Origin: a virus
Taxonomy: Duplodnaviria; Heunggongvirae; Uroviricota; Caudoviricetes
Direction: 5' to 3' (one strand)
Length of the DNA: 13,300 nt
Virus record (IMG/VR): IMGVR_UViG_2681813205_000017
Span: 1 to 13,300 of that record
Positions 1-13,300 of the stretch are shown here, one piece after another (within the stretch, counting starts at the first letter, position 1; each line of letters opens with the position of its first letter). Made by a program: the position numbers and the translations under genes. The notes beneath the pieces were generated by a model that was not told the origin of the DNA, searched no databases, and was given only the letters and a program-made list of their open reading frames with translations.

Positions 1-162
1 ATTACTGCTTCAGGTTGGTGTATTGCTTGCATCTTTCCCTTTTCATTCATAAAGATAGATCAAACAACAAAACCACCACCACCCCCCTGAAAAGGCTCAT
101 AAATAGCGAAAATCCGCGAGGTCTCCGCCCCGTAACAGGTCCATATGCCGGAAAGGACCCGC

Positions 163-184
163 AAAAAAGCCGGATTTCTCCGGC
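163..184 (-). terminator. Intrinsic terminator ending the capsid operon (GCCGGA-GAAA-UCCGGC stem-loop plus U6 on the - strand)
   Basis: 6-bp GC-rich stem with a GNRA tetraloop followed by six U on the - strand RNA, 7 bp downstream of the stop of the 191..604 gene. Confidence 0.7.
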
Positions 185-190
185 CTTGTC

Positions 191-604
191 TCAGATGGTT
201 TTCAGTATGCGATCGATGTCGCCGTCATCGCCCGGGTTTCTGCCATCGTATGCCATGCCAGCTGATACGGCTTGTGGGCTGTGCATGTCCATAAAGTTTT
301 CAAAGGCTGCGGTAAGCTCTGGTGCAACCTTCGGGCGTTCCTGCTCTATGGTCATGTTCAGGATGTTTTTAGCCGTATCAACATCAATACAAGGCACGTT
401 TGCCATTGCACGTAACAGCGGCTGATAGTCGTCAGATTCATGAAGCGCCATAATCGCATCAGCGCGCGGCTTGTCCTTCTCTTCCAGGCTGTTAAGTTGA
501 TATACGGCCTCGTAGGTTGATAAACCTCTGTCAGCCATTGCCCGCGCTTCGGCTTTAAATTTACTCGCCAGCGGTAGCGTCATGATACTTTCATTCGTTG
601 CCAT
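191..604 (-). CDS. Hypothetical protein, last gene of the capsid operon (137 aa)
   Basis: ATG at 604 preceded by a GGGGG Shine-Dalgarno. Starts 13 nt after the stop of the decoration-like gene and is followed by an intrinsic terminator. The + strand ORF 15..425 overlapping it lacks such context. Confidence 0.6.
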   Translation of the reverse strand: MATNESIMTLPLASKFKAEARAMADRGLSTYEAVYQLNSLEEKDKPRADAIMALHESDDYQPLLRAMANVPCIDVDTAKNILNMTIEQERPKVAPELTAAFENFMDMHSPQAVSAGMAYDGRNPGDDGDIDRILKTI

Positions 605-616
605 CGTTCCCCCTGC

Positions 617-952
617 TTATCGCGCCAGCGGCTGAACGGATACGCCAGAACCCGCAAAGGCGGCGCATTTTTTCGCGTCGGTGTCGGCGCTCTCAGGCCA
701 GTTAACGGCGGCAATATTGAATATCCCCGTCTTGTAGCACTGTGCTGATTTCTGCGTCGACGTGTCCACGGGGTACGAGGTCAGATAAACAGCCTTGCCA
801 GATTCCTGACCATCCCACGGCTTAAACTCGCCATTTTCCGCCAGCATCAGCGGGGTAAATTCCTGAATAACGCCAGCATCAGCAGCAAAATGTACCAGCG
901 TCGTGGATACCTGCTGACTACCTGCAAATAACTCAATGTATGGAGTGTCCAT
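617..952 (-). CDS. Head decoration protein, lambda gpD-like (111 aa)
   Basis: Translation shares recalled gpD motifs (TPLML, WDG, YK-G-F, WPE, KK-AFAG-VSV) and similar length. GGGGGG Shine-Dalgarno 5 nt upstream of the ATG. Immediately downstream of the capsid gene. Confidence 0.7.
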   Translation of the reverse strand: MDTPYIELFAGSQQVSTTLVHFAADAGVIQEFTPLMLAENGEFKPWDGQESGKAVYLTSYPVDTSTQKSAQCYKTGIFNIAAVNWPESADTDAKKCAAFAGSGVSVQPLAR

Positions 953-964
953 AGAATCCCCCCG

Positions 965-2020
965 TTAACCAATTTTGACGATAACAAATTTGCGAATATC
1001 TGCCGGTACCGGCTGCGGTGCGCTGTGCGTCTGCACGTACTCAATCGCCGGATCGCCGTCCTCAATCCAGTTTTTCGGGTAAAACATGTTTTGCGTTGCG
1101 CCCGTTCTGACCGCTTCCTGATCCATAATCGCACCATAGGCCACCAGCCCTTTATTGTTGGTGTTACCCAGGACCAGCAAATCAGGCTCAAGGAAATATT
1201 TTTCGGTGCCGTCGCTGTCAGTGTATTTGCCGGAATAGACGACAAGGGCAATATCGCCCAGATAGCCTTTAAAGCTCACCACTTCACCCAGGTTTTTACA
1301 GGCCAGTTCTGCGGCGGATTCTGAACCACGGGAAAGGTCGTACAGTTCGCGGAATTTTTTAAAGCTGCGTAACGTGCGCCATACTTCAGCGCCCATAATC
1401 ATGACGTTTGCGGGGCAATTGCCCTGATCAGCATAAAGCTCGATGTCATAGATTGGATCGTGTGTTTCTTTATCCAGCTCAGACCATTTTTTACCGTCAG
1501 CCTGTTCTATGATATTGCTTTCCGGGATCTTCCAGTCGATTTCATAGCGTTCTATGCCTTCGCCCTCAATGAGGTTTTTTCCGGTCGTTACCGCATTCAC
1601 CGCCAGCCATTCCACGCGTGCCTTAATGGCGTTTATCTGGCGGCGCATGTTGCCAGTAATCAGGCGCATACGGCGATAGGTAGGATCGTTAAGCTGTGCC
1701 GGATCTTCTCCAGCCATGCGCATGATGGTTTTTGTTGGATCGATTTCGTGTTTGGGTTTCATGTAGCCTGGTTTAATCGTGCTGGTTTCGTACCCTTTAT
1801 CGCGCTGGACCTGACTACCCACCATAGGCGAACAGAACGCTGACATCGTAACCTCTTCAATGTCCAGGGTGTCCAGAATGATGTTCTGGGTGTTGAAGGT
1901 CGCCACGTTCGGGAAAAACAGCGTGGTAAACAGCGGACTGAATTTAAATTCTGCAATATCCCCGCGATTCAGGTACGCGAAAAGCTGGTTAGTGTTAAGT
2001 GCCGTTGCTTTGCCTGCCAT
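965..2020 (-). CDS. Major capsid protein, lambda gpE family (351 aa)
   Basis: Translation aligns along its length with recalled lambda gpE (FKF-PLF, PGYMKPKHE, DPTYRRMR, LRSFK, RGSES, VVYSGKY, LVLGNT, YPKNW, GDPA, SAP). GGAGGTG Shine-Dalgarno; start overlaps the upstream stop (TAATG). Confidence 0.85.
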   Translation of the reverse strand: MAGKATALNTNQLFAYLNRGDIAEFKFSPLFTTLFFPNVATFNTQNIILDTLDIEEVTMSAFCSPMVGSQVQRDKGYETSTIKPGYMKPKHEIDPTKTIMRMAGEDPAQLNDPTYRRMRLITGNMRRQINAIKARVEWLAVNAVTTGKNLIEGEGIERYEIDWKIPESNIIEQADGKKWSELDKETHDPIYDIELYADQGNCPANVMIMGAEVWRTLRSFKKFRELYDLSRGSESAAELACKNLGEVVSFKGYLGDIALVVYSGKYTDSDGTEKYFLEPDLLVLGNTNNKGLVAYGAIMDQEAVRTGATQNMFYPKNWIEDGDPAIEYVQTHSAPQPVPADIRKFVIVKIG

Positions 2021-2226
2021 TATTCACCTCCATGCGTCTGATTCATGCCCAGCGCCGCGCGTAAATAGGCGCGGACCTGCCAGCCTGTTGACGGCTCAAC
2101 CATCGCCAGCGGATCAAGTCCTGCCGCAATGCCTGCTTTTACGTTCTGCTGGTGGCGTTCCTTGAGCGCCTTCACGATGTCGGGGCTTATGTACACCGAA
2201 ACACCGCCTTTTTTCTCTTCAGCCAT
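2020..2226 (-). CDS. Hypothetical small protein, first gene of the capsid operon (68 aa)
   Basis: ATG at 2226 with a purine-rich ribosome-binding site. Stop overlaps the capsid start codon (translational coupling). Lies ~55 nt downstream of a near-consensus sigma70 promoter. Confidence 0.6.
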   Translation of the reverse strand: MAEEKKGGVSVYISPDIVKALKERHQQNVKAGIAAGLDPLAMVEPSTGWQVRAYLRAALGMNQTHGGE

Positions 2227-2282
2227 AGTAAGAAATTCCTCTTCGACTTAAAAAATCATAACTGGATGTTTATCCAGTCCTG

Positions 2283-2310
2283 ATTATAATCAGAATTGCA
2301 TTTTATGCAA
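2283..2310 (-). promoter_or_regulatory. Sigma70-type promoter of the capsid operon (-35 TTGCAT, 16-bp spacer, -10 TATAAT on the - strand)
   Basis: On the - strand, TTGCAT (complement of 2305..2310) and TATAAT (complement of 2283..2288) with a 16-bp spacer. Both hexamers sit inside perfect palindromes (TTGCATTTTATGCAA and CTGATTATAATCAG). Confidence 0.55.
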
Positions 2311-2390
2311 TGATATTGAGTTATGTTGCAAATTATGAAATGATTATCCCGATCACGAACGCCAGTGCATCCAAAAACCTCATATGCAAA

Positions 2391-2429
2391 AGCCCGATAA
2401 GAACCCTCTGACCTTATCGGGCTTTTTTT
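2391..2429 (+). terminator. Strong stem-loop with T7 tract (AGCCCGATAAG ... CTTATCGGGCT TTTTTTT); + strand intrinsic terminator geometry, possibly bidirectional
   Basis: 11-bp stem followed by seven T on the + strand. On the - strand the same hairpin is followed by UUUUG. No + strand gene upstream, so it may act mainly as a second - strand terminator or insulator. Confidence 0.5.
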
Positions 2430-2435
2430 GGGCGC

Positions 2436-2457
2436 AAAAAAGCCGGATTGCTCCGGC
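2436..2457 (-). terminator. Intrinsic terminator after the 74-aa gene (GCCGGA-GCAA-UCCGGC plus U6)
   Basis: Same module as 163..184 and 2799..2821 but with a GCAA tetraloop; lies 20 bp downstream of the stop at 2478. Confidence 0.7.
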
Positions 2458-2477
2458 TATGTGTGCTGTGTGCTGGC

Positions 2478-2702
2478 TCAGTCTCTGATCTCTTTCAGAA
2501 ATTCTATCAATGCATCTATCTGTTCAGGATTTACCGCCAGCATTTCACCGGACAGAGCACATCTCACAAAACCATGCTGATCCTTTTCAATCAGTGCGCC
2601 CGTCTCCAGGAATGCGCGGTAATCATTGATGCTCATCGTCTCCATGTTGTCAGCATGGTATTTATCACGCTGTTTTAATATCTCATCAAATTTCATCGGC
2701 AT
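2478..2702 (-). CDS. Hypothetical protein (74 aa), monocistronic moron-like cassette
   Basis: ATG at 2702 preceded by AGAGGA. The gene is bracketed by intrinsic terminators on both sides (2799..2821 upstream, 2436..2457 downstream). Confidence 0.6.
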   Translation of the reverse strand: MPMKFDEILKQRDKYHADNMETMSINDYRAFLETGALIEKDQHGFVRCALSGEMLAVNPEQIDALIEFLKEIRD

Positions 2703-2798
2703 TGTTTTTTTCCTCTGTTGTGTCTGTTTGTTTCAGATAGTAACTATGCCTGACCGTGACGAAAACCCGGTAATGCGCCATACCGTTTCAACTGGTGC

Positions 2799-2821
2799 AA
2801 AAAAAGCCGGATTTCTCCGGC
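2799..2821 (-). terminator. Intrinsic terminator after the PerC-like gene (GCCGGA-GAAA-UCCGGC plus U7)
   Basis: GNRA-tetraloop hairpin plus U-tract on the - strand, 8 bp downstream of the stop at 2829. Confidence 0.7.
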
Positions 2822-2828
2822 TGTTTGA

Positions 2829-3104
2829 TTAGCTGTCCTGGTAATTGCGCCATATTTCATCACCAGCACCATCTATACCCATTTCGGCATAAGTGCGATC
2901 GACTGCCTTTTTCAGGTCTCCGAAATTATCCGGCGGCTCCGGTGCCCTCTGTGCCTTCCTTGAACATTCCAGCCGTCGCATCGTGATGTGATGCCGTTCC
3001 TTGTCTGTCTCCACCAGCTGCATGACTTCACCCCATCGCGCCGCCGCCCTCCGGTAAAAGCCTTTCGCCTCTAGTTCCTCCGCTATGCGGTCATGTACCA
3101 TCGT
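2829..3104 (-). CDS. PerC-family transcriptional regulator (91 aa)
   Basis: N-terminal AEELEAKGFYRRAAARWGEVM matches the recalled PerC/Pch signature (LE-G-WRRAA-RW). The likely start is the ATG at 3104 (GAGGGGG Shine-Dalgarno, 8 nt after the SSB stop) rather than the ORF-track start at 3221, which would overlap ssb by 110 nt. Confidence 0.65.
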   Translation of the reverse strand, partial: TMVHDRIAEELEAKGFYRRAAARWGEVMQLVETDKERHHITMRRLECSRKAQRAPEPPDNFGDLKKAVDRTYAEMGIDGAGDEIWRNYQDS

Positions 3105-3111
3105 CACCCCC

Positions 3112-3522
3112 TCAGAACGAAATATCATCACCGTAAGGGTCATCGCCTCCCGCTGGTGGCTGATTACCCTGTGTGCCTGTGGTTTTGCGTCTGTTCCCGC
3201 CAGGACGTGCCGCACGGGCACTGATTACGCTGTCTGCAATAACCTGATACCCCTGCCGTGTTTCCCCGTTCTGTCCGGTCCACTGGCTTACCTGCATCGT
3301 GCCGGATACGCTGGCAACATCGCCTTTTTGATGTTTAGCCAGGAAATCGGCCTGTTTGCCAAATGCGATAACCGATAACCATAACGTCGCCTGTCCGTCA
3401 TGTGCCTGGCTGCATGGCAACGATACCGCCATACGCGCCAGAGTCATCGGTGTGCCCTTGCTGGTCTGTTTTACCTGCGGGTCGTCCACCAGCCGCCCGT
3501 AAGCGGCTATCTGTGCCGTCAT
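3112..3522 (-). CDS. ssb: Single-stranded DNA-binding protein (136 aa)
   Basis: OB-fold core resembles E. coli SSB (W-x-x-V-x-x-FGK ... KG ... W), followed by a Gly/Gln/Pro-rich linker and an acidic C-terminal tail DDPYGDDISF (E. coli SSB ends DDDIPF). GGAGAGGTG Shine-Dalgarno; ATGA overlap with the upstream gene. Confidence 0.85.
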   Translation of the reverse strand: MTAQIAAYGRLVDDPQVKQTSKGTPMTLARMAVSLPCSQAHDGQATLWLSVIAFGKQADFLAKHQKGDVASVSGTMQVSQWTGQNGETRQGYQVIADSVISARAARPGGNRRKTTGTQGNQPPAGGDDPYGDDISF

Positions 3523-3770
3523 AATTCCACCTCTCCGGTTTTAACGTTGATGGTTGTTACCTGTTCCGCTTCGGCAATCTCCCGTTCTGTCAGCGTGGCA
3601 AAGTTTGCCGCCGCCGTGGTCATGAATGCGCTTATCAGGTCGGGATGTTCCTTCGCGTATCCTTCCCGCGTGTGGCGGTCTATCGTTCTGATTGCCACCT
3701 TTAAGGTGTGCTCAGTCATGTCTAACGCTTTATATTTTGGCTCTGTTCTGTCTCTGCGTTTTTGGGTCAT
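3519..3770 (-). CDS. Hypothetical protein (83 aa from the ATG at 3770; alternative start at 3800 gives 93 aa)
   Basis: ORF translationally coupled to ssb (ATGA overlap). The ATG at 3770 has a GAGAGG ribosome-binding site and avoids overlap with the iterons. Confidence 0.5.
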   Translation of the reverse strand: MTQKRRDRTEPKYKALDMTEHTLKVAIRTIDRHTREGYAKEHPDLISAFMTTAAANFATLTEREIAEAEQVTTINVKTGEVEL

Positions 3771-3782
3771 TTCTCGCAACCT

Positions 3783-3973
3783 CTCACTTTTTCGCCTCAC
3801 TTTTTCAAGCGTCTCACTTCGTCGCAGCTGGGATTTTCGGTTTTTCTATGTGTGTGTTTCATAAGTATTTTTTTACCCCTCACTTTTGAGGATGTATACA
3901 GGTCGAAAAGTGAGGGAGAGCAGGCTAATTTTGGCCCTCTTTCTATCCACCTCGCTTTTGCTCCTCACTTTTA
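3783..3973. repeat. Putative replication origin: six CTCACTT(TT) iterons flanking an AT-rich stretch
   Basis: CTCACTT copies at 3783, 3796, 3813 and 3879, an inverted copy at 3906..3915 (AAAAGTGAGG) and another at 3963, plus a degenerate copy near 3950. AT-rich segment 3836..3876. Lies directly 3' of the helicase gene. Confidence 0.55.
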
Positions 3974-5371
3974 TAGCGGCGCTACATCATCCCCATCGAT
4001 ACGAATAACCCCATCTTTTTCCAGCTTGTACAGCCAGCGCCGGAAGTTTTTCATTTCATACCCCAGCTTTTTCATGTCATCACGTAACAGCGGGATCGTG
4101 CACTTGTCGCCGTTCTGTGTGCGTGAACGGATGCACCCCCATAGCGCGGTATGGTTTTCCGTCTTGTTCCCTGCCTCCTCGATGCGCTCCAGTTCAACAG
4201 GAGGGCGCGGATCATCCACCACCACCAGCGACGTGATTAATTCACCGTCAGCGTCGGTAAAAAGCTCCACCACGCGTAAGTCATATGCGGCTTCTTTGAG
4301 TTCCTCCGCGTCCTTCATTTTGGTGCATGAGATAACCAGCGCTTCGCTTCCTGCGTCCTCCCTGCGTATCCGGTATTCAGCATCCAGCGAAGCACGAAAT
4401 GCACTGGAACCGCGCGCGCCTTTCGTCTCATCCTTGCCGGAATGGTGAACCACCAGCACCGTGGCCCCTGTGCGTCGTTTCAGTTCGTCACAACCACGGA
4501 TAAACGCCCCCATATCACGGGAATCATTTTCATCATTCCCACCAAAGCAACGCGCCAGCGTATCCAGAATAATCATGCGTACAGGTTTACCCGTTTCCCG
4601 CTCCACCTGACGGGCAGCGATAACCATTTCATCAACATCAAGCGGGGCAGCCGGAAAGATGGGGCGGTTTACCAGATACAGATTTTTCACCTGCTCATCG
4701 TGCACAACCTCCCAGGCTTTTACACGACGCGGAACACCTATACCGCCTTCACCAACCACATAGAGAACCGCACCATGTGCAACCCTGCGGCCTCCCCACT
4801 GGCGACCAGTGGCAACATGGCACGCCCACGATCCGGCAAGGAATGATTTATAGGACCCGCTAGCCCCGTATATGCTGCATAGCGATACCGCCGGAATAAT
4901 CCCCTTAACCACGTAATCCAGTTGCGTGTCGTATCCGGTAGATCCAACGCTCATCGGTAGCGTGGTTTTTCGCTGGTGGTTTTTTTCTTCCGCCGGCTCT
5001 TTCCCGCGCACCCGTTCCAGGTATTCGCGCCAGTTCTCCCGCATATGGCTGTGCATCCCTTCGGGGTAATAATTCGCATCAGTTACACCCGCCGCCGCCA
5101 GCTTGTGCGCAATGGCATTAATATTTGATGGCCTGATGTGGCCTGCCTTGTACAGCCGGACACAATAGCGCCCCTCGTCGATGATTCTCAGGTCTGCCAG
5201 TTCATCCAGTTGATCATCAGCCAGCACAACGGGAGGCACATTATCGCCAGCCAGTCGCCCGTCCTGTTCCTGCCACTGTTTCGCATGTGCCCAGGCATCA
5301 CTACCCGCAAAAATAATGACTTCGGTCATCTTGTCGTAAGGCTGTTTTTTTAAGTTCGGTGCGCTTTTCAT
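3971..5371 (-). CDS. Replication initiator / replicative helicase, RecA-fold ATPase (RepA / AAA_25-like), 466 aa
   Basis: Walker A-like GASGSYKS, Walker B-like MIILDTLARCF, and VLVVHHSGKD typical of RepA/DnaB-like helicases of satellites and plasmids. ATGA overlap with the upstream gene; iterons immediately downstream. Confidence 0.75.
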   Translation of the reverse strand: MKSAPNLKKQPYDKMTEVIIFAGSDAWAHAKQWQEQDGRLAGDNVPPVVLADDQLDELADLRIIDEGRYCVRLYKAGHIRPSNINAIAHKLAAAGVTDANYYPEGMHSHMRENWREYLERVRGKEPAEEKNHQRKTTLPMSVGSTGYDTQLDYVVKGIIPAVSLCSIYGASGSYKSFLAGSWACHVATGRQWGGRRVAHGAVLYVVGEGGIGVPRRVKAWEVVHDEQVKNLYLVNRPIFPAAPLDVDEMVIAARQVERETGKPVRMIILDTLARCFGGNDENDSRDMGAFIRGCDELKRRTGATVLVVHHSGKDETKGARGSSAFRASLDAEYRIRREDAGSEALVISCTKMKDAEELKEAAYDLRVVELFTDADGELITSLVVVDDPRPPVELERIEEAGNKTENHTALWGCIRSRTQNGDKCTIPLLRDDMKKLGYEMKNFRRWLYKLEKDGVIRIDGDDVAPL

Positions 5372-5667
5372 TTCTTGCCCCTGAATCCGTTAATCATGGT
5401 TTTCAGCTTCTGGATGTTTGCCCGTGCCCTGGCGTTGCTGGTGGGCACGTTATGCGGCGCGGTCTGTACCAGAGAAAAATCACGCCGGAACTGATAAACA
5501 GGCATCACGCAATCATATTCGTAACCTTCACGGCGGTAGGTTACGCGCCGTTCTTCCACGCCCTTAATCATTACCGTGCCGCCGTACTGGTCGCGGTAAA
5601 TATCACCGCGCGTAAATTTAGGGTGAGTGTTGCCACTGGCAGTTAAGCCAGAATATTTAAGTTTCAT
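5368..5667 (-). CDS. Hypothetical protein (99 aa), translationally coupled to the helicase gene
   Basis: ATG at 5667; stop overlaps the helicase start (ATGA). Basic, Tyr/Arg-rich; no recognisable motif. Confidence 0.55.
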   Translation of the reverse strand: MKLKYSGLTASGNTHPKFTRGDIYRDQYGGTVMIKGVEERRVTYRREGYEYDCVMPVYQFRRDFSLVQTAPHNVPTSNARARANIQKLKTMINGFRGKK

Positions 5668-5672
5668 TATTT

Positions 5673-5906
5673 TTATTCTCCGGTGTGCTGTTCTTTATAT
5701 CTGTCGTGCAATAGATCTATTTCTTGCAGTTCCATTATTACAGGATCAAGAAGCGTTATTAATGCCGTGGCAATTCTTGATTTTTGTTTGTCGCGTTCAT
5801 TGTCGCCAAGTGTTTCAAGCCATATGCGCAATATTTCCAGCATGTTTTCACTGTGAGAAAGTGCAAGAAATGCGCGGTCTATTGTTTGGTGGTAAATATC
5901 ACGCAT
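5673..5906 (-). CDS. Hypothetical protein (77 aa)
   Basis: ATG at 5906 overlaps the stop of the upstream gene (ATGCGTGA). Part of the same coupled gene chain. Confidence 0.55.
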   Translation of the reverse strand: MRDIYHQTIDRAFLALSHSENMLEILRIWLETLGDNERDKQKSRIATALITLLDPVIMELQEIDLLHDRYKEQHTGE

Positions 5907-6357
5907 GGCTTACATCCTCAGGAAATTTTCTTCTATAACGCGCCTCTGCCACATATTCCGCATAATCGGCGGCGATATTCAGTACATCAAGCCCCGTTGA
6001 TTTATATTCTCTCGTGGAAAGTAAGAAAAAAGCCGCTCTAATAAGTTCTGGCATTGACGAAAGCGCATCAGCCGCATCATCAGGAACGCCGGAAAATTCC
6101 TGTTTCAGGGAATTAAAACGATCATCACGCATAACCCCCCCCCCATTTTCACAATCAGCAACAAGAATATTTTTAGCGTCATTCAGCGACCGCGTTGCGG
6201 TGTATCGGATACATTCCAGGGCGAATAGTGTGTATTCTTCCCTTTCTTCCCTTTCTTCCTTTTGTGCAAGCTCTGCTGTGCATTCAATATCAATAAGCGC
6301 GTGCATCAGCGTAGTGAGTGCGGCGGCGGCTGCGTCCGGTGTGGTTTTATTGCACAT
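5899..6357 (-). CDS. Hypothetical acidic protein (153 aa from the ATG at 6357) containing an in-frame G10 tract
   Basis: ATG at 6357 has a GGAGGGG Shine-Dalgarno 3 nt upstream. The ORF-track start at 6411 has no ribosome-binding site and would overlap the upstream gene by 65 nt. Contains an EEREEREE repeat and the Gly-Gly-Gly encoded by the C10 run at 6135..6144. Confidence 0.55.
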   Translation of the reverse strand: MCNKTTPDAAAAALTTLMHALIDIECTAELAQKEEREEREEYTLFALECIRYTATRSLNDAKNILVADCENGGGVMRDDRFNSLKQEFSGVPDDAADALSSMPELIRAAFFLLSTREYKSTGLDVLNIAADYAEYVAEARYRRKFPEDVSHA

Positions 6358-6577
6358 GTACCCCTCCGCATTTTTTTTCGTTAGAAATAAGCGTTCTTCT
6401 TTCCTGTTCATCGATCAGGAATACGCAGACCTCACCGCTAAGGCGTTTAAGTAAGCCGATGATTGCCCCTGATTCGCTGTCGGTCATCATGCCTGGGTAA
6501 TCCTCTGCCAGTGCGCAAATAACTTCGATTTGGTGGGCGCGTTCTACTGCCTGTTGTAGTGTGATTTCCTGGCTCAT
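6347..6577 (-). CDS. Hypothetical protein (76 aa)
   Basis: ATG at 6577 with a GGGGG ribosome-binding site; ATGA overlap with the candidate upstream ORF. Contains an A8 tract on the coding strand. Confidence 0.55.
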   Translation of the reverse strand: MSQEITLQQAVERAHQIEVICALAEDYPGMMTDSESGAIIGLLKRLSGEVCVFLIDEQERRTLISNEKKCGGVHVQ

Positions 6578-6774
6578 AAGCCTACCCCCTGACGAATACG
6601 GGCAGCGAATACCATCACGCAGCCAGCCGGGGATTGCAGGCGTGCTTCCTGTTCGCTGGTGGCCTCAATGGTAATCACGCGCGGTTGTGCAGTGCTCAGG
6701 GCGATAAAACGCCAAATGTATTTATTCAGGTTGTGCGAGTCCCGCCCTTGCGGGTGTGTGGTATGATTTCTCAT
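6574..6774 (-). CDS. Candidate small ORF (66 aa), putative first gene of the early operon
   Basis: Not listed separately in the ORF track; it is the C-terminal end of the spurious 381-aa ORF. ATG at 6774 with a GAGG ribosome-binding site 6 nt upstream; stop overlaps the next start (ATGA); ~100 nt downstream of the predicted - strand promoter. Confidence 0.4.
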   Translation of the reverse strand: MRNHTTHPQGRDSHNLNKYIWRFIALSTAQPRVITIEATSEQEARLQSPAGCVMVFAARIRQGVGL

Positions 6775-6872
6775 AGCTACCTCGATACTCTCGTTATCGT
6801 TGGTGGTTAGAAGCCCCGTTACTGCTCCTACAGTGCGGGGTTTCGTCGTTTCTGCACCTTGCATTAACAAGG

Positions 6873-6950
6873 TGTAAGTAACTTTATTTATAGGTGGCTT
6901 ACATGTCAATGCTTTTATGTAAGACTTTTTATGTGTATATTGTCTTACAC
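6873..6950. promoter_or_regulatory. Divergent switch region: four TGTAAG / CTTACA operator half-sites overlapping a - strand TTGACA-N17-TAAAGT promoter
   Basis: Half-sites at 6873 (TGTAAG), 6898 (CTTACA), 6919 (TGTAAG) and 6945 (CTTACA), alternating in orientation. On the - strand a perfect -35 TTGACA (complement of 6904..6909) and a -10 TAAAGT (complement of 6881..6886) with a 17-bp spacer. Confidence 0.5.
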
Positions 6951-6970
6951 TTTCATTGAGAGGATTACAG

Positions 6971-7276
6971 ATGGCTACAGGTTCAAAAAACGCAAAATCA
7001 CAATCACTGACAGCTCGGATCCCGCATGATGTTATTGAAGGCATGGAATCCGTAAAACTGGACGGTGAAAGCAACGCCGGATTCATAGTAACCGCCATGC
7101 GCGGTGAAATCGCCCGCCGCCAGGCAGAAGGAAGCGGAGAAAACCTCCTGATTTCTTCGCTCAATGCACTGGCGCAGGTGGAAAAACTCGGAATCAAAGC
7201 CGCCGAGGAGATCGGGCAGCTCGTCACTGTCGCACGTGAAGAACTCCAGCGCCGCAAGACTAAAGAACCAGAGTAA
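6971..7276 (+). CDS. Putative transcriptional regulator, candidate repressor of the early operon (101 aa)
   Basis: ATG at 6971 with a GAGAGGA Shine-Dalgarno. Divergent from the - strand operon and immediately downstream of the operator cluster. Function is inferred from position only. Confidence 0.55.
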   Translation: MATGSKNAKSQSLTARIPHDVIEGMESVKLDGESNAGFIVTAMRGEIARRQAEGSGENLLISSLNALAQVEKLGIKAAEEIGQLVTVAREELQRRKTKEPE

Positions 7277-7318
7277 TCACCATCAGCGCCGTGGTGTAAG
7301 GTATTACGGCGCATTGCT

Positions 7319-7507
7319 ATGCAGGACAACACAATGACCGATAAAGAATTGACCAAAACATTATCACCGGCACGGAAAAGACGGCGCAGAAAGATAGAGC
7401 ATGAATCAGAAAGATTCGCGCCATGTGCTTTTGCCCTTGAGCAATTCCTTAAAGAGTACAGGGAAAAGCGCTCATTGCAGGTATGGCAACGAACTGAACC
7501 AGACTGA
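7319..7507 (+). CDS. Small basic protein (62 aa; alternative start at 7334)
   Basis: ORF following the regulator on the same strand, with a Lys/Arg-rich stretch (ARKRRRRK). Followed by an intrinsic terminator at 7603..7630. Confidence 0.4.
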   Translation: MQDNTMTDKELTKTLSPARKRRRRKIEHESERFAPCAFALEQFLKEYREKRSLQVWQRTEPD

Positions 7508-7602
7508 TAGCATTGCCCACCAGCCTGATAGCGACTATCATTGCCGTTCTTATGTTTGGGATCACACACACAAACGGCGCAGCGGGTTATCTGTTCAGAA
7601 AG

Positions 7603-7630
7603 GCGGCTCCATTTCGGGGCCGCTTTTTTT
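7603..7630 (+). terminator. Intrinsic terminator for the + strand regulator genes
   Basis: GCGGCUCC ... GGGGCCGC stem (one G-U wobble) with a 5-nt loop, followed by seven T. Confidence 0.6.
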
Positions 7631-7776
7631 ATGTCTGAAAAACCCCAATTTTGTTGTTTTTCAGTTTCACCAGGGCGAACGAATCCCCGCCCACGTTCTG
7701 GCGTATATTCAATCTTCATGGTTATAGCTCTGTGTTCAGATGATTGATGTGTGGCGGCTGCGTGCCGCCAGCGTGA

Positions 7777-7965
7777 TTAATGAACTGCCTTGCAGCTATC
7801 CTTCCAGGCCAGAACCTCGGATAAAGACCAGCCAACGGAACGACCGCCAAGTTTACGACGTGATGGGAATTGTCCGGCCTTTTCCAGGCGGTAGCGACAC
7901 GTACGGCTAAGGCCGGTTAGTTTTTCGCATTCTTTTTCACGTATAAACCGATCAGTGCTTAACAC
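7777..7965 (-). CDS. alpA: AlpA-family phage regulator / excisionase-like protein (62 aa from GTG at 7965)
   Basis: CEKLTGLSRTCRYRLEKAGQFP ... GGRSVGWSLSEVLAWK matches the AlpA helix-turn-helix signature. The ORF track starts at a TTG at 8046, but a GTG at 7965 has an AGGGGGG Shine-Dalgarno and gives the typical AlpA length. Confidence 0.75.
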   Translation of the reverse strand: MLSTDRFIREKECEKLTGLSRTCRYRLEKAGQFPSRRKLGGRSVGWSLSEVLAWKDSCKAVH

Positions 7966-8238
7966 TATTGCCCCCCTTTCGTTTCTTAAAGAGTCATCAG
8001 GTGTCTTATTGTGTCGTATTGTTCCCGCTAGAGTGATGAATGGCAAATATTGAGGATGTATGATTTACAGAAAATGAAACAGTAAGAATAAAATCTTTTA
8101 AATTCATGTTAATACAAAGGCATAAAATATTGTTTCATGCCTTTTTTCTCACGCGTTAAAGCGTTATTCGCTAATGTATAAAAAAACAGTCACACAAATA
8201 AAATCAGTCACTTATAAACCTGTGTACTTTTTCGCCTC

Positions 8239-8288
8239 TTGTTCGTGGTTGTTCCACGTTGTTTCACATTGTTCGCCGTTGTATCTGT
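8239..8288. repeat. Five tandem 10-bp units each beginning TTGT (helically phased) between int and alpA
   Basis: TTGTTCGTGG TTGTTCCACG TTGTTTCACA TTGTTCGCCG TTGTATCTGT, an exact 10-bp period. Confidence 0.6.
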
Positions 8289-8330
8289 GTGCTTATCCAG
8301 TATGCGCATACTGAAAAAACACGAAAAAAA

Positions 8331-9548
8331 TTATTTTCTTCTGGCTGCTGGTAGTGCGGTTACGTTTTCATGTGTTCCCGCCAGTATCCCTAACCGCTCC
8401 ATCCACATATCCAGCGCATTGCGTTTAGCATCCAGATAACGGGAATGATTATAAACTCGCTGCATTCCTGGCATCTGGTGGCCTGTAAGCTGCTCCACGA
8501 CATGCGGATCAACGCCTAAATCGTTCAGCATGGTTGTAAAGGTGCGCCGGATGTCATGCAGTGACCAGTGAGGATGATTAAGCCTCCTGTGCGCTAATCT
8601 TCCATACTGCGATACGCTGGCCTCCTGTTTCACTTCCCCCAGCAATAAGCCCGTGTGCCTGTTCTGCTCCACCAGCTGCGTGACGAACGGCAGTATTGCT
8701 TCCGGTATGGGCCGGAATATTGCCACCTTCGTTTTGCTGTGTTCTTTCGGCACGGTCCAGAGCATTTCGGTAAAATCCCACTCGCTGATCTCCGATAACC
8801 TCAGTTCTACCGTCCGGCATCCGAACACAATCAGGAGGCGGATTAACGCGATGTAGTAGGGGGAGAATATTTTTTTGTCCAGTGCCTGCAATAATTCGCC
8901 CAGTTCTTTGGTGCTTAAGACACGCTCGCTTATATCCGGTTTTTTCCCAACGTCCGCCACACTCATATCATCAAGAACGTTGCTGATTGCATAGCGCCGC
9001 CTCCGGCAGAACTTAAGCGCCTGTTTGCACGTCTGTAGCAAGAATCCGGCAGTAACAGGCGTTCGCTTTGCCACCTGGTCAAAACAGGCCAGCCAGTGCC
9101 GTAGCTCGCATTTATCCAGCGGCATAGCACCAATGTGCTGTATTACGTGATTATTAAGTCGCCTTTTCAGGGCGATATAATCCACGCGGTTTTCCTTTAC
9201 GTAATACTCAAGCCAGTAGGTGAGCGCATCGCCAACCGTTACGGGCTTTAACGCTTCCTGTACGGTGTAATTCATCTCATGACGTGGATTTTTCCCCTCA
9301 GCCAGCCATGTGCGACACTGTGCGGCTTTTTCCCTGGCTGCTTTCAGGCTCAGATCAGGATAACTTCCCAGCTTAATGCGTTCGGGTCGTGTCTCCCTTC
9401 CCGTTCCGGCCCTGTATGTGAAATACCAGGTCAATTTCCCTGATGTTAAATATTTCACGCTCAGGTTTCCGCCATCACTATAAAACGTGTTTTTCTCCGC
9501 TGGCTTACCATGAAGTTTCCTTAGCAAGGTATCGCTCAGTTTGTTCAT
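8331..9548 (-). CDS. int: Tyrosine integrase, P4-like family
   Basis: N-terminal arm-binding-type motif (KPAEKNTFYSDGGNLSVKYL), C-terminal catalytic region with HDIRRT and VYNHSRY (R, H-x-x-R, Y). Start is probably the ATG at 9548 (MNKLSD...); the ORF track uses a GTG at 9560. It is the outermost island gene next to the junction. Confidence 0.85.
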   Translation of the reverse strand: MNKLSDTLLRKLHGKPAEKNTFYSDGGNLSVKYLTSGKLTWYFTYRAGTGRETRPERIKLGSYPDLSLKAAREKAAQCRTWLAEGKNPRHEMNYTVQEALKPVTVGDALTYWLEYYVKENRVDYIALKRRLNNHVIQHIGAMPLDKCELRHWLACFDQVAKRTPVTAGFLLQTCKQALKFCRRRRYAISNVLDDMSVADVGKKPDISERVLSTKELGELLQALDKKIFSPYYIALIRLLIVFGCRTVELRLSEISEWDFTEMLWTVPKEHSKTKVAIFRPIPEAILPFVTQLVEQNRHTGLLLGEVKQEASVSQYGRLAHRRLNHPHWSLHDIRRTFTTMLNDLGVDPHVVEQLTGHQMPGMQRVYNHSRYLDAKRNALDMWMERLGILAGTHENVTALPAARRK

Positions 9549-9584
9549 TGCTCTGCTCACGTTTTACCCCCTCTTTACGAAAAA

Positions 9585-9650
9585 GTGACTACACCAGTGA
9601 CTACACCGATCGTTGCACAAAGGGCTACAACGTGAAACAAGCTGGAACAA
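9585..9650. promoter_or_regulatory. int upstream region with a 12-bp tandem repeat (GTGACTACACC x2) and four 10-bp phased units ending ACAA; candidate arm-type or regulator binding sites
   Basis: GTGACTACACCA GTGACTACACCG at 9585..9608. CGTTGCACAA AGGGCTACAA CGTGAAACAA GCTGGAACAA at 9611..9650, which is the reverse complement motif of the array at 8239..8288. Confidence 0.45.
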
Positions 9651-9757
9651 GGAAAATCACAAATCTGTTGATAATCAAAAACATAATGCACAGCCTGAAA
9701 CATTATGAAACAGCAAAAAACACTAAATGATAAAATGCTGTTATTCTTAACCCGCTG

Positions 9758-10642
9758 GTGCAACACATGGTCCGCTGGCGAGTGCCGCGTGTACTGGCGG
9801 TGTCGATTTTGATGACCATCATCGTGATGGCGATGGTGTTGCTATTAGCTTATCTGGGTTCCGCGCTCAACGAGTTGACGCGGACGTTACCGCAATATCG
9901 CAACTCTATTATGACGCCGCTGCAAGCTCTTGAGCCGTTGTTGCAACGCGTAGGGATTGACGTCTCAGTTGACCAGCTGGCGCATTACATTGATCCGAAC
10001 GCGGCGATGACGTTGCTCACCAACTTATTGACGCAGTTATCTAATGCCATGTCATCAATATTTTTATTGCTGCTGACGGTGCTGTTTATGCTGCTCGAAG
10101 TGCCACAATTGCCCGGAAAATTTCAGCAAATGATGGCGCGTCCGGTTGAAGGGATGGCGGCGATTCAACGTGCAATTGACAGTGTTTCTCATTATCTGGT
10201 GCTGAAAACAGCCATCAGCATCATCACCGGCCTGGTCGCCTGGGCGATGCTCGCCGCACTCGATGTTCGCTTCGCTTTTGTCTGGGGATTGCTGGCCTTT
10301 GCGCTTAATTACATCCCTAATATTGGTTCAGTTCTCGCGGCAATCCCCCCTATCGCTCAGGTACTGGTGTTTAATGGCTTCTACGAAGCGTTGCTGGTGC
10401 TGGCGGGATATCTGCTGATTAATCTGGTCTTCGGCAATATTCTGGAGCCGCGCATCATGGGACGTGGGCTGGGGCTTTCCACATTGGTGGTATTTTTGTC
10501 GTTGATTTTTTGGGGATGGTTGTTAGGACCGGTGGGTATGCTGCTTTCCGTGCCGTTAACAATTATTGTCAAAATTGCGCTTGAACAAACAGCGGGAGGT
10601 CAAAGCATCGCCGTTCTGTTAAGCGATCTCAATAAAGAGTGA
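9758..10642 (+). CDS. tqsA: AI-2 exporter TqsA (YdgG), 5'-truncated by the island insertion (294 codons retained)
   Basis: Translation matches recalled E. coli TqsA from its internal [15 protein letters not shown] segment to the C-terminal SDLNKE. An in-frame TAA at 9731..9733 lies directly upstream and there is no native N-terminus or ribosome-binding site. The ORF-track start is an internal GTG. Confidence 0.8.
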
Positions 10643-10662
10643 CGGCCTCCGCAGAGGCCGTC
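10641..10662. terminator. Shared stem-loop between convergent tqsA and pntB (GACGGCCTC-cgca-GAGGCCGTC)
   Basis: 9-bp perfect GC-rich inverted repeat lying exactly between the two stop codons. Confidence 0.55.
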
Positions 10663-10666
10663 AGGG

Positions 10667-12058
<1,392 letters not shown>

Positions 12059-12065
12059 TTACCCC

Positions 12066-13300
<1,235 letters not shown>

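Follow-up and report, generated by a model that had tools for sequence, protein, structure and literature searches.

What protein binds the two arrays of 10-bp repeats that lie on either side of the integrase gene in a phage-inducible chromosomal island (PICI), and what purpose do they serve? The question is raised by positions 1–13,300 of the virus record IMGVR_UViG_2681813205_000017, a stretch of 13,300 nt referred to throughout as ‘the window’. It covers the right-hand portion of an EcCICFT073-like PICI that has inserted into the gene tqsA; the left end of the island falls outside it. An earlier reading of this DNA, made from the sequence alone (the ‘sequence-only reading’), described helically phased protein-binding arrays belonging to a site-specific recombination module, and named either the integrase or an AlpA-like excisionase as the protein likely to bind them. 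The first of these propositions is supported by the work described here and, of the candidate proteins, AlpA is the best supported. We think it reasonably probable that the arrays are AlpA operators, used for excision at the attachment (att) sites and for autoregulation at alpA. The genes and arrays on which the discussion turns are the following.

7777..7965, − strand: alpA, encoding a 62-aa winged-helix protein of the AlpA family (PF05930 Phage_AlpA, 61.8 bits)
8239..8288, − strand: internal (int-distal) array of five units, the proposed AlpA operator for autoregulation
8331..9560, − strand: int, encoding a P4-family heterobivalent tyrosine integrase (Int) of 409 aa, with PF13356 Arm-DNA-bind_3 and PF00589 Phage_integrase domains
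9611..9650, + strand: att-arm array block 1, four units ending ACAA, the proposed sites for AlpA acting as a recombination directionality factor (RDF)

Two inverted arrays with an exact 10-bp period

Just downstream of int, at 8239–8288, are five units that begin with TTGT (+ strand: TTGTTCGTGG TTGTTCCACG TTGTTTCACA TTGTTCGCCG TTGTATCTGT), and just upstream of it, at 9611–9650, are four that end with ACAA (+ strand: CGTTGCACAA AGGGCTACAA CGTGAAACAA GCTGGAACAA). The two arrays are reverse complements of each other. Their coordinates and period are as the sequence-only reading gave them. It also called the units exact, but only the 10-bp period is so; TTGT or ACAA alone is invariant, and the units otherwise differ in sequence. 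The mirror image that it drew across int holds at 17 of 20 positions (CGTGAAACAA GCTGGAACAA against the reverse complement of 8250–8269, TGTGAAACAA CGTGGAACAA). A search for repeats pairs the two arrays with each other as inverted repeats, in three registers offset by 10 bp (25–35 nt, 76–79% complementary), and the program TRF reports a period of 10 at 8248–8282.

The arrays are non-random, and they are conserved. Among all 256 tetranucleotides, examined at periods of 7–13, runs of at least four units occur in the 13.3-kb window at these two arrays only. Runs of TTGT/ACAA of at least four at period 10 were found in none of 2000 first-order Markov simulations, and comparable runs of any tetranucleotide in 2 of 200; a chance origin was rejected on these grounds. 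The units conform to the consensus CGTG(G/A)AACAA, with the core GTTY/RAAC, and conservation within them is weak, involving only 4–5 positions.

The attachment arms in homologous islands

Homologous islands were compared at five Escherichia coli chromosomal sites: tqsA, phoQ/roxA, yifB/ilvL, smrA/abgR and clpS/cspD. (Homologous loci are cited, where necessary, by the designations L001, L002 and so on.) The sequence-only reading staked its case on the periodicity recurring in homologous islands, and it does recur, at all five sites and in other genera; besides the runs of 4 and 5 units in the window, runs of 3–4 units at exactly 10 bp are present in the homologues. It also proposed a comparison with the other end of the island and there, at a position beyond the window, the homologues possess a third full array. 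Several components that the sequence-only reading omitted accompany the arrays: this far-end array, a short run close to alpA (7999–8028; see below), and two elements on the int-side arm, which are listed here with the core.

9584..9607, + strand: doubled 12-mer, AGTGACTACACC twice, an exact 12-bp tandem abutting block 1; proposed Int arm-type sites
9694..9723, + strand: att-arm array block 2, core-adjacent, three units, CCTGAAACAT TATGAAACAG CAAAAAACAC
9736..9744: identity block TGCTGTTAT, common to both island junctions (core/crossover region, at the junction between island and tqsA)

The pair of 12-mers, which has the general form N4-ACTACACC repeated twice, is situated 23 bp upstream of the int start codon, and block 1 is located between this pair and the core block. 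Read on the − strand, block 1 consists of units of the kind TTGTTCC/TTGTTTC... directed at int (in int-ward order, TTGTTCCAGC TTGTTTCACG TTGTAGCCCT TTGTGCAACG), and it is identical between the islands at tqsA and phoQ/roxA. Block 2 lies 63 bp from block 1—6 helical turns at 10.5 bp—and is kept in L002–L006, although in L006 the motif has shifted to CGAACAC.

The same arrangement is found at both ends of the island in seven elements from five integration sites: a co-oriented pair of 12-mers, followed by 3 nt, followed by the 10-bp units, whose ACAA ends fall in the fixed register +13/+23/+33/+43 after the pair. The far arm has a degenerate first unit. In L001 and L002 the centres of the 12-mer pairs are ∼143 bp from the centre of the core on the int side and ∼90 bp on the far side. 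Co-oriented tandem pairs at asymmetric distances, one of them just upstream of int, are the architecture of a P4-family attP. The identity block at the junctions is short: TGCTGTTAT at tqsA, with copies at 2996 and 18038 of L001, and AAATATGTCC at phoQ/roxA. Sequence identity between the window and the phoQ/roxA island stops at the block at 9736–9744. A tRNA-linked att site was considered and rejected; there is no tRNA in the window, and the target is tqsA.

DNA looping across int, which the sequence-only reading suggested, found no support, and there are three to four arrays rather than two. Nor, probably, is the flanking of int a functional unit: one array is part of an att arm, whereas the second is part of the upstream region of alpA, at a distance of 1.4 kb from the core.

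Phasing and strandedness across genera

A wider survey, restricted to one genome per species, yielded 73 loci with Int relatives of 42–93% identity. A doubled 12-mer occurs near the start of int in 50 of the 61 loci that were scored, in approximately nine sequence variants. Pooled over 65 non-redundant upstream regions from many genera, pairs of GTTY upstream of int number 91 at a distance of 10 bp, versus 1 at 9 bp and 1 at 11 bp, and a further 34 at 20 bp. The phasing is specific to one strand—the reverse-complement motif is almost absent upstream of int at these 65 loci—and the control, the int coding sequence, is flat for GTTY pair distances.

Strandedness bears on the idea that the phased AACAA tracts act not as sequence-specific protein sites but through intrinsic curvature, or as a preferred site for a host nucleoid protein (IHF, Fis or H-NS), that helps to fold the att arms. 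Exact 10-bp phasing of A-rich pentamers can bend DNA, P4-family and lambda-type systems need host bending proteins, and H-NS silences an alpA promoter in Shewanella. Curvature alone needs no strandedness, however, and the core is strand-specific relative to int at 65 loci. Moreover, the conserved core contains G and C (CGTG(G/A)AACAA, and GTTCG in L006 and in other genera), lacks a match to the IHF consensus, and matches the mapped sites of an excisionase, TorI. We regard this explanation as very unlikely.

Integrase domains and the doubled 12-mers

The N-terminal domain of Int occurs as two alleles, which are shuffled relative to the core-binding and catalytic domains. In L004 and L005, for example, the core-binding and catalytic domains are 96–99% identical and the N-domains are different. 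The 12-mers track the N-domain allele on both arms (A[AG]T[GA]ACTACACC versus ATT[AG]ACTACACC), whereas the array between the int-side pair and the core tracks the core-binding/catalytic lineage. Among Xenorhabdus loci in which AlpA is almost identical, the 12-mer is GTATAAACA or TGGGGTAATC according to the type of Int N-domain, and across the roughly nine 12-mer/N-domain variants the array core, GTTY, is constant. Covariation of this sort, between elements that are not contiguous, argues that the 12-mers are arm-type sites; judged from sequence, the doubled 12-mers are the more likely candidates for that role.

It is against this background that the other binder named by the sequence-only reading, the integrase, has to be assessed. 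In that case the 10-bp arrays would be arm-type sites for the Int N-domain, and the internal array would allow Int to regulate alpA. Int has an Arm-DNA-bind_3 domain; the arrays are present on both att arms, as arm sites are; it is by way of arm sites that P4 Int and IntS repress their promoters; and the lambda sites P'1–P'3 are likewise ∼10 bp apart. But a better candidate abuts each array, namely the doubled 12-mer, which supplies four half-sites for a tetramer, is annotated in P4 as an attP arm repeat, and resembles in style the mapped arm motif of IntS. The 12-mer changes with the N-domain allele while the array core stays GTTY, and the array on the right arm groups with the core-binding/catalytic lineage of Int rather than with the allele. 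Arm sites, furthermore, are confined to att arms, and the array at 8239–8288 is outside att. The integrase is decidedly unlikely, in our opinion, to be the protein that binds the arrays.

The integrases themselves invite a separate observation. Those of the window, L001 (16633–17862) and L002 (16993–18222) are 95–99% identical in their core-binding/catalytic domains, and their differences are concentrated in the N-terminal arm domain. These integrases sit at different sites, tqsA versus phoQ/roxA, whose short junction blocks (TGCTGTTAT versus AAATATGTCC) are unrelated. It seems that the choice of site can shift while the catalytic half of Int hardly changes.

AlpA as the probable binder

The AlphaFold2 model of AlpA (pLDDT 86) is a winged helix of the excisionase type. 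Its best match in the Protein Data Bank (PDB) is the GIsul2 excisionase, 8C3T (TM 0.83/0.90), and next among the small RDFs come RdfS, Pukovnik Xis and TorI. AlpA also matches 8C3T in sequence (E = 2e-6); a literature search for a paper describing 8C3T found none. RDFs such as Xis, Cox, Apl and Vis bind with low specificity to direct, head-to-tail repeats one helical turn apart, and they often have one set of sites at att and another at a promoter. The island presents the same combination: direct repeats, at least three in number, that are one turn apart and weakly conserved; a position on the att arm, between core and int, beside proposed Int arm-type sites; and a small winged-helix gene of the RDF type, alpA, of its own.

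In published experiments with EcCICFT073, AlpA activates a reporter fragment carrying the alpA promoter (PalpA); AlpA expressed from a plasmid suffices, with no helper phage present; and its overexpression leads to Int-dependent excision and replication of the island. When the published primers are mapped onto CFT073, the activated fragment corresponds to L003 17132–17587 and contains the internal array, at 17474–17533. An autoregulatory role for the internal array, such as the sequence-only reading envisaged, fits this finding as regards alpA, the activated fragment containing the homologous array; control of the int promoter (Pint) by these sites is not supported for this family, AlpA having had no effect on a Pint reporter. 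In other systems, the AlpA of PICMI is necessary and sufficient for excision, and has been noted to be TorI-like, and AlpA is the excisionase of CP4So and of CP4-57. We infer that AlpA binds the arrays, bends the DNA and cooperates with Int.

The same experiments bear on the possibility that some other small protein is the binder, be it another product of the island or a protein of the helper phage such as its excisionase. In the version in which a helper protein binds, it is at the internal array that the helper would turn the island on. The published work names no helper-phage factor as the inducer of alpA transcription, cross-talk between PICI and helper-phage excisionases has been demonstrated in the literature, and proteins of the RDF type have relaxed specificity. 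AlpA alone, however, activates the array-bearing fragment and induces excision without a helper phage. The array motif is conserved across genera that have different helpers, AlpA being the conserved neighbour, and nothing points directly to another binder. We consider both forms of this proposal unlikely.

In the survey, long upstream runs (3–4 consecutive units, 4–7 in total) occur where AlpA has an LGGRxVGW wing, one locus with a different 12-mer included; loci with the other class of AlpA have two-unit pairs only. In the Aeromonadaceae loci, which serve as an alpA-absent control that is only partly clean, there are no phased units. Absence was scored as the lack of an AlpA-profile match in a locus of ∼7 kb (3 kb either side of int). 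A phased GATATT run in L006 was considered as an allele-specific AlpA operator, and set aside as non-discriminating because a GTTCG-type inverted run is also there.

Several points weigh against assigning the arrays to AlpA. One is the behavior of Pint. By the same mapping of primers onto CFT073, the Pint reporter fragment (∼18245–19092) holds the att-arm array, the 12-mers and the core, and yet in EcCICFT073 AlpA left its activity unchanged; TorI and Vis repress their int promoters, and RdfS activates its own. A literature search found no paper that maps AlpA operators in PICIs. TorI scores below the Pfam threshold for AlpA, and so the match of the array motif to its sites draws an analogy across distantly related winged-helix proteins. 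More usually, RDF sites occupy one arm and not both. In the survey, AlpA class and Int clade are partly confounded within the 73-locus sample, and the association of long arrays with AlpA class is therefore not independent of phylogeny; Shewanella and one Rosenbergiella locus, moreover, have no AlpA-profile match but keep 2–3 phased units. In int–alpA spacers the inverted motif, RAAC, is raised at 10, 20 and 30 bp, but these peaks come from 49 spacers that were not de-replicated, they are inflated by near-identical long arrays (L045/L046 and L051/L052), and the counts also peak at 8 bp. Finally, other genera have an extra gene of ∼250 aa separating int from alpA and lack the long int-distal array, which is thereby marked as lineage-specific. 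The mirror symmetry about int therefore belongs to the E. coli/Shigella lineage.

The alpA upstream region

Two further features, besides the internal array, lie upstream of alpA.

7999..8028, − strand: short phased run just upstream of alpA, GCGGGAACAA TACGACACAA TAAGACACCT (TRF period 10 at 8001–8022)
8119..8141: conserved hairpin GGCAT...ATGCC, between the internal array and alpA (alpA leader)

On the − strand, reading toward alpA, the internal array is ACAGATACAA CGGCGAACAA TGTGAAACAA CGTGGAACAA CCACGAACAA. In the E. coli/Shigella islands L001–L005 it comprises 5–6 units, again in the orientation opposite to that of the att-arm array; the ACAA core is fixed and the remaining positions drift. 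The short run overlaps a conserved promoter-like element composed of TTGCCA (8046–8041), a 17-bp spacer and AACAAT (8023–8018). Across the islands this element takes the form TTGCCA-17-NACAAT, ∼45 bp upstream of the alpA start; a search for Pint and PalpA by promoter consensus returned weak candidates only. The internal array and the short run are both inside the AlpA-activated reporter fragment, and constitute a putative second operator set. The alpA start is a GTG, following the annotation of RefSeq homologues, and a longer open reading frame (ORF), which begins with TTG and reaches 8046, is probably an over-extension.

The stem of the hairpin at 8119–8141 is conserved in five diverged islands. 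It is followed by a T-run on the + strand (8142–8147) and by a weak T-tract on the − strand, and is terminator-like mainly on the +. Its loop holds a high-scoring unit of the array type, CATGAAACAA, which is not conserved in CFT073. Two other proposals concerning the spacer were rejected. A functional RNA structure or known RNA family was one: a hairpin within the array (8244–8258) is not conserved in CFT073, and Rfam gave no match in the window. GTGACT at 8180–8210, as extra Int sites, was the other; it is unchanged with the Int N-domain allele.

In other genera this region takes other forms. Capsid-forming PICIs of Klebsiella and Enterobacter have very long 10-bp arrays upstream of alpA (L008 7128–7225 and 7270–7330, L045 and L046). 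These consist of ATTCAACAGC and ACGTAACGAC units followed by inverted TGTTCATC units, and the copy number of ATTCAACAGC differs among strains (3 versus 5). At L013 and L016–L018, and less completely at L015, L019 and L039, the ∼60 bp before the alpA start contain a strong hairpin, GCCCTCG...CGAGGGC plus a T-run, that abuts the ATG of alpA. The 3' half of this hairpin includes the likely Shine–Dalgarno sequence (GAGGG), and its loop carries a conserved CGAAC-N5-CGAAC pair. It may control alpA as a terminator, or by sequestering the ribosome-binding site.

A working model and its significance

In the model that we favor, AlpA would be both a winged-helix RDF (an excisionase) and the transcriptional activator of the island. 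Its monomers would bind head-to-tail, one per helical turn, to weakly conserved units, and in so doing bend the DNA. On each att arm, an array of about four units would abut, in fixed helical register, two Int arm-type sites of 12 bp each; by bending the arm into shape, the filament of AlpA would assist the loading of the N-domains of Int, leading to excision by attL × attR recombination. The inverted array downstream of int, together with the short run near the alpA start, would be the target of AlpA in its known positive autoregulation.

A bolder extension combines two elements: that the int-distal array is the entry point for helper induction, where an excisionase-type protein of the helper, produced when the prophage is induced, nucleates on the phased units and recruits or replaces AlpA, and that the excisive complex carries an RDF on both att arms. 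We think this most improbable as it stands. If true, the first would explain how helper phages switch on Gram-negative PICIs, and the second would be unlike the one-arm paradigm of lambda, P2 and KplE1.

No new principle is involved, dual-site winged-helix excisionases being well known, but the arrangement has not previously been mapped for EcCICFT073-like PICIs in the literature that we searched. AlpA is the master switch of Gram-negative PICIs, and these spread virulence and defence genes. What emerges is an operator model—CGTG(G/A)AACAA units at a 10-bp period, in four arrays per element, in fixed register with doubled Int arm sites—whose layout is conserved across Enterobacterales. The covariation assigns to the Int N-domain a doubled 12-bp attP motif that was previously unassigned, and the model could sharpen the delimitation of att sites by satellite-finding software.

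Replication modules and other features of the island

To the left of alpA, all on the − strand, are genes for an Icd-like protein, a DUF4222 protein, a RepA-type helicase, SSB, PerC, a major capsid E protein and a decoration protein. To the right of int is a 5'-truncated tqsA, followed by pntBA. The int–alpA module has 86% identity with that of EcCICFT073, which is the reference PICI for Gram-negative bacteria, and the backbone of the island is 99.3% identical to that of an O26 island.

9737..10642, + strand: tqsA 3' part (chromosomal flank)

The first ∼144 bp of tqsA are found at the other end of the island in homologues (L001 2868–3011). The island thus splits this gene, which encodes an AI-2 transporter, leaving the ∼144-bp 5' end at the far end and the remainder at the int end, and tqsA is probably inactivated in carriers of the island. 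Among 5426 complete E. coli genomes, 876 match at least 80% of the 7700–10000 query (alpA, int and the tqsA junction), a count that takes in islands at other sites such as phoQ/roxA.

Among the replication proteins, three architectures are represented—a 466-aa RepA-type helicase, primases of 582–605 aa and DUF927 proteins of ∼710 aa—and they share only the N-terminal ∼100–130 residues, at 59–72% identity (window 3971–5371; L001 and L003–L006), which suggests a common, swappable N-terminal module. Putative replication origins just downstream of rep each have module-specific iterons: CTCACTT, six times, in the window (3523–3970) and in L002; TAACCCGCA in L001 (11599–11970) and L004; GGTAGAYA in L003 (12431–12718) and L005; and TGTTCACC, identical to the type-1 iteron of P4, in L006 (13185–13471).

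Could the 10-bp arrays, then, be iterons themselves, bound by a replication initiator of the island as in P4? The type-1 iterons of P4, TGTTCACC, are ∼10 bp apart and resemble the units, and their geography, near attP (crr) and upstream of vis (ori), is similar. Each replication module, however, has its own iteron cluster immediately downstream of rep, whereas the ACAA arrays occur in every one of these islands and include no copy of the module-specific iterons. PICI origins, too, are reported in the literature to lie downstream of pri. We can give this idea hardly any credence.

Two observations remain. At 2718–2737 on the − strand of the window are two adjoining units of the array type, TCTGAAACAA ACAGACACAA, directly upstream of the ribosome-binding site of the small ORF (2478..2702) with which the capsid gene block opens; these could be a further AlpA site, or due to chance. 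An ORF of 381 aa at 6574–7719 (−) has no family match and overlaps the region 6956–7276 (+), where the annotation of RefSeq homologues shows a YlcI/YnfO-family gene along with a fragment of a pseudogene; the long ORF is probably spurious.

Comparison with known systems

Judged by its published description, the AlpA of Pseudomonas aeruginosa, a Q-like antiterminator, shares only its name with the AlpA of the window. It acts at one 6-bp element, GGGACG, located between −35 and −10, contacts DNA through residues 128–142 and places an N-terminal segment in the RNA exit channel; the AlpA of the window is a 62-aa winged helix. Antitermination of that type was rejected for the island, as neither the protein (62 aa) nor the architecture of the sites (multi-unit arrays) fits.

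Cox and Apl, of phages P2 and 186, and RdfS, of an integrative and conjugative element, are dual-purpose RDFs. Cox and Apl bind cooperatively, and with low specificity, to direct repeats one turn apart, and have sets of sites at both att and promoters; RdfS occupies 40 bp of DNA adjoining an Int arm site and, in addition, the promoter of its own gene. These proteins are unrelated to AlpA or distant from it. Apl and Cox repress promoters, whereas AlpA activates, and the RdfS sites have no recognisable motif.

P4 resembles the island in its overall plan. Its doubled 12-mers are ∼75 and ∼134 bp from the core (∼90 and ∼143 bp in the island), the int-proximal pair is followed by a 10-bp phased run toward the core, and in the P4 record the corresponding tandem pairs carry the label ‘attP arm sequence repeat’. 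P4 Vis, an AlpA-family excisionase and regulator of the late promoter, represses Pint. It is reportedly needed for excision, binding two boxes between int and the core, and is said also to regulate its own late promoter. The two systems differ in the sequences of both motifs (ATGCCCCC; ...CGG/A), in the second pair of P4, which has no phased run, and in the location of vis, which is far from int, so that there is no mirror around int.

The HE-PICIs described by the Williams lab (PMC10111431) have integrases of a related PICI clade and carry a doubled, co-oriented 12-bp motif in attP (tgTGTATTGCa twice, or TGTATTGC). This motif lies 81 and 132 bp on either side of the attP centre, an asymmetry like that of the island 12-mers. 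Its sequence is different, and adjacent 10-bp phased arrays are not described in that paper, which left open whether the arm domain of Int, AlpA or an unknown protein is the binder.

A further parallel is KplE1 (CPS-53) of E. coli K-12, on whose attL the TorI and IntS sites have been mapped (Panis et al. 2010, PMC2951348). It is not exact: TorI falls outside the Pfam AlpA family, its sites are on one arm only, torI is at the other end of the KplE1 prophage, and TorI represses PintS, while the AlpA of EcCICFT073 has no effect on Pint. The likenesses concern the DNA and the integrase. TorI sites (GTTCG/GATCG/GTCCG) have the same type of core as the island array; three of them, ACAGTTCGTCA TGGTTCGCTT CAGATCGTTG, follow one another at a period of exactly 10 bp, another two being closer to the core, and this layout in two blocks, I1;2 and I3;4;5, parallels blocks 1 and 2 of the island. 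They lie between the core and intS and point toward intS, as the units at 9611–9650 lie and point with respect to int, and they abut the IntS arm-type sites next to the start of the gene just as the island array abuts the 12-mers. IntS and the P4-type Int of the window have identical domain architectures. Taken as a whole, the architecture is most likely that of winged-helix RDF operator arrays beside Int arm sites, a further set being located at the gene for the RDF itself, and its kind is well known.

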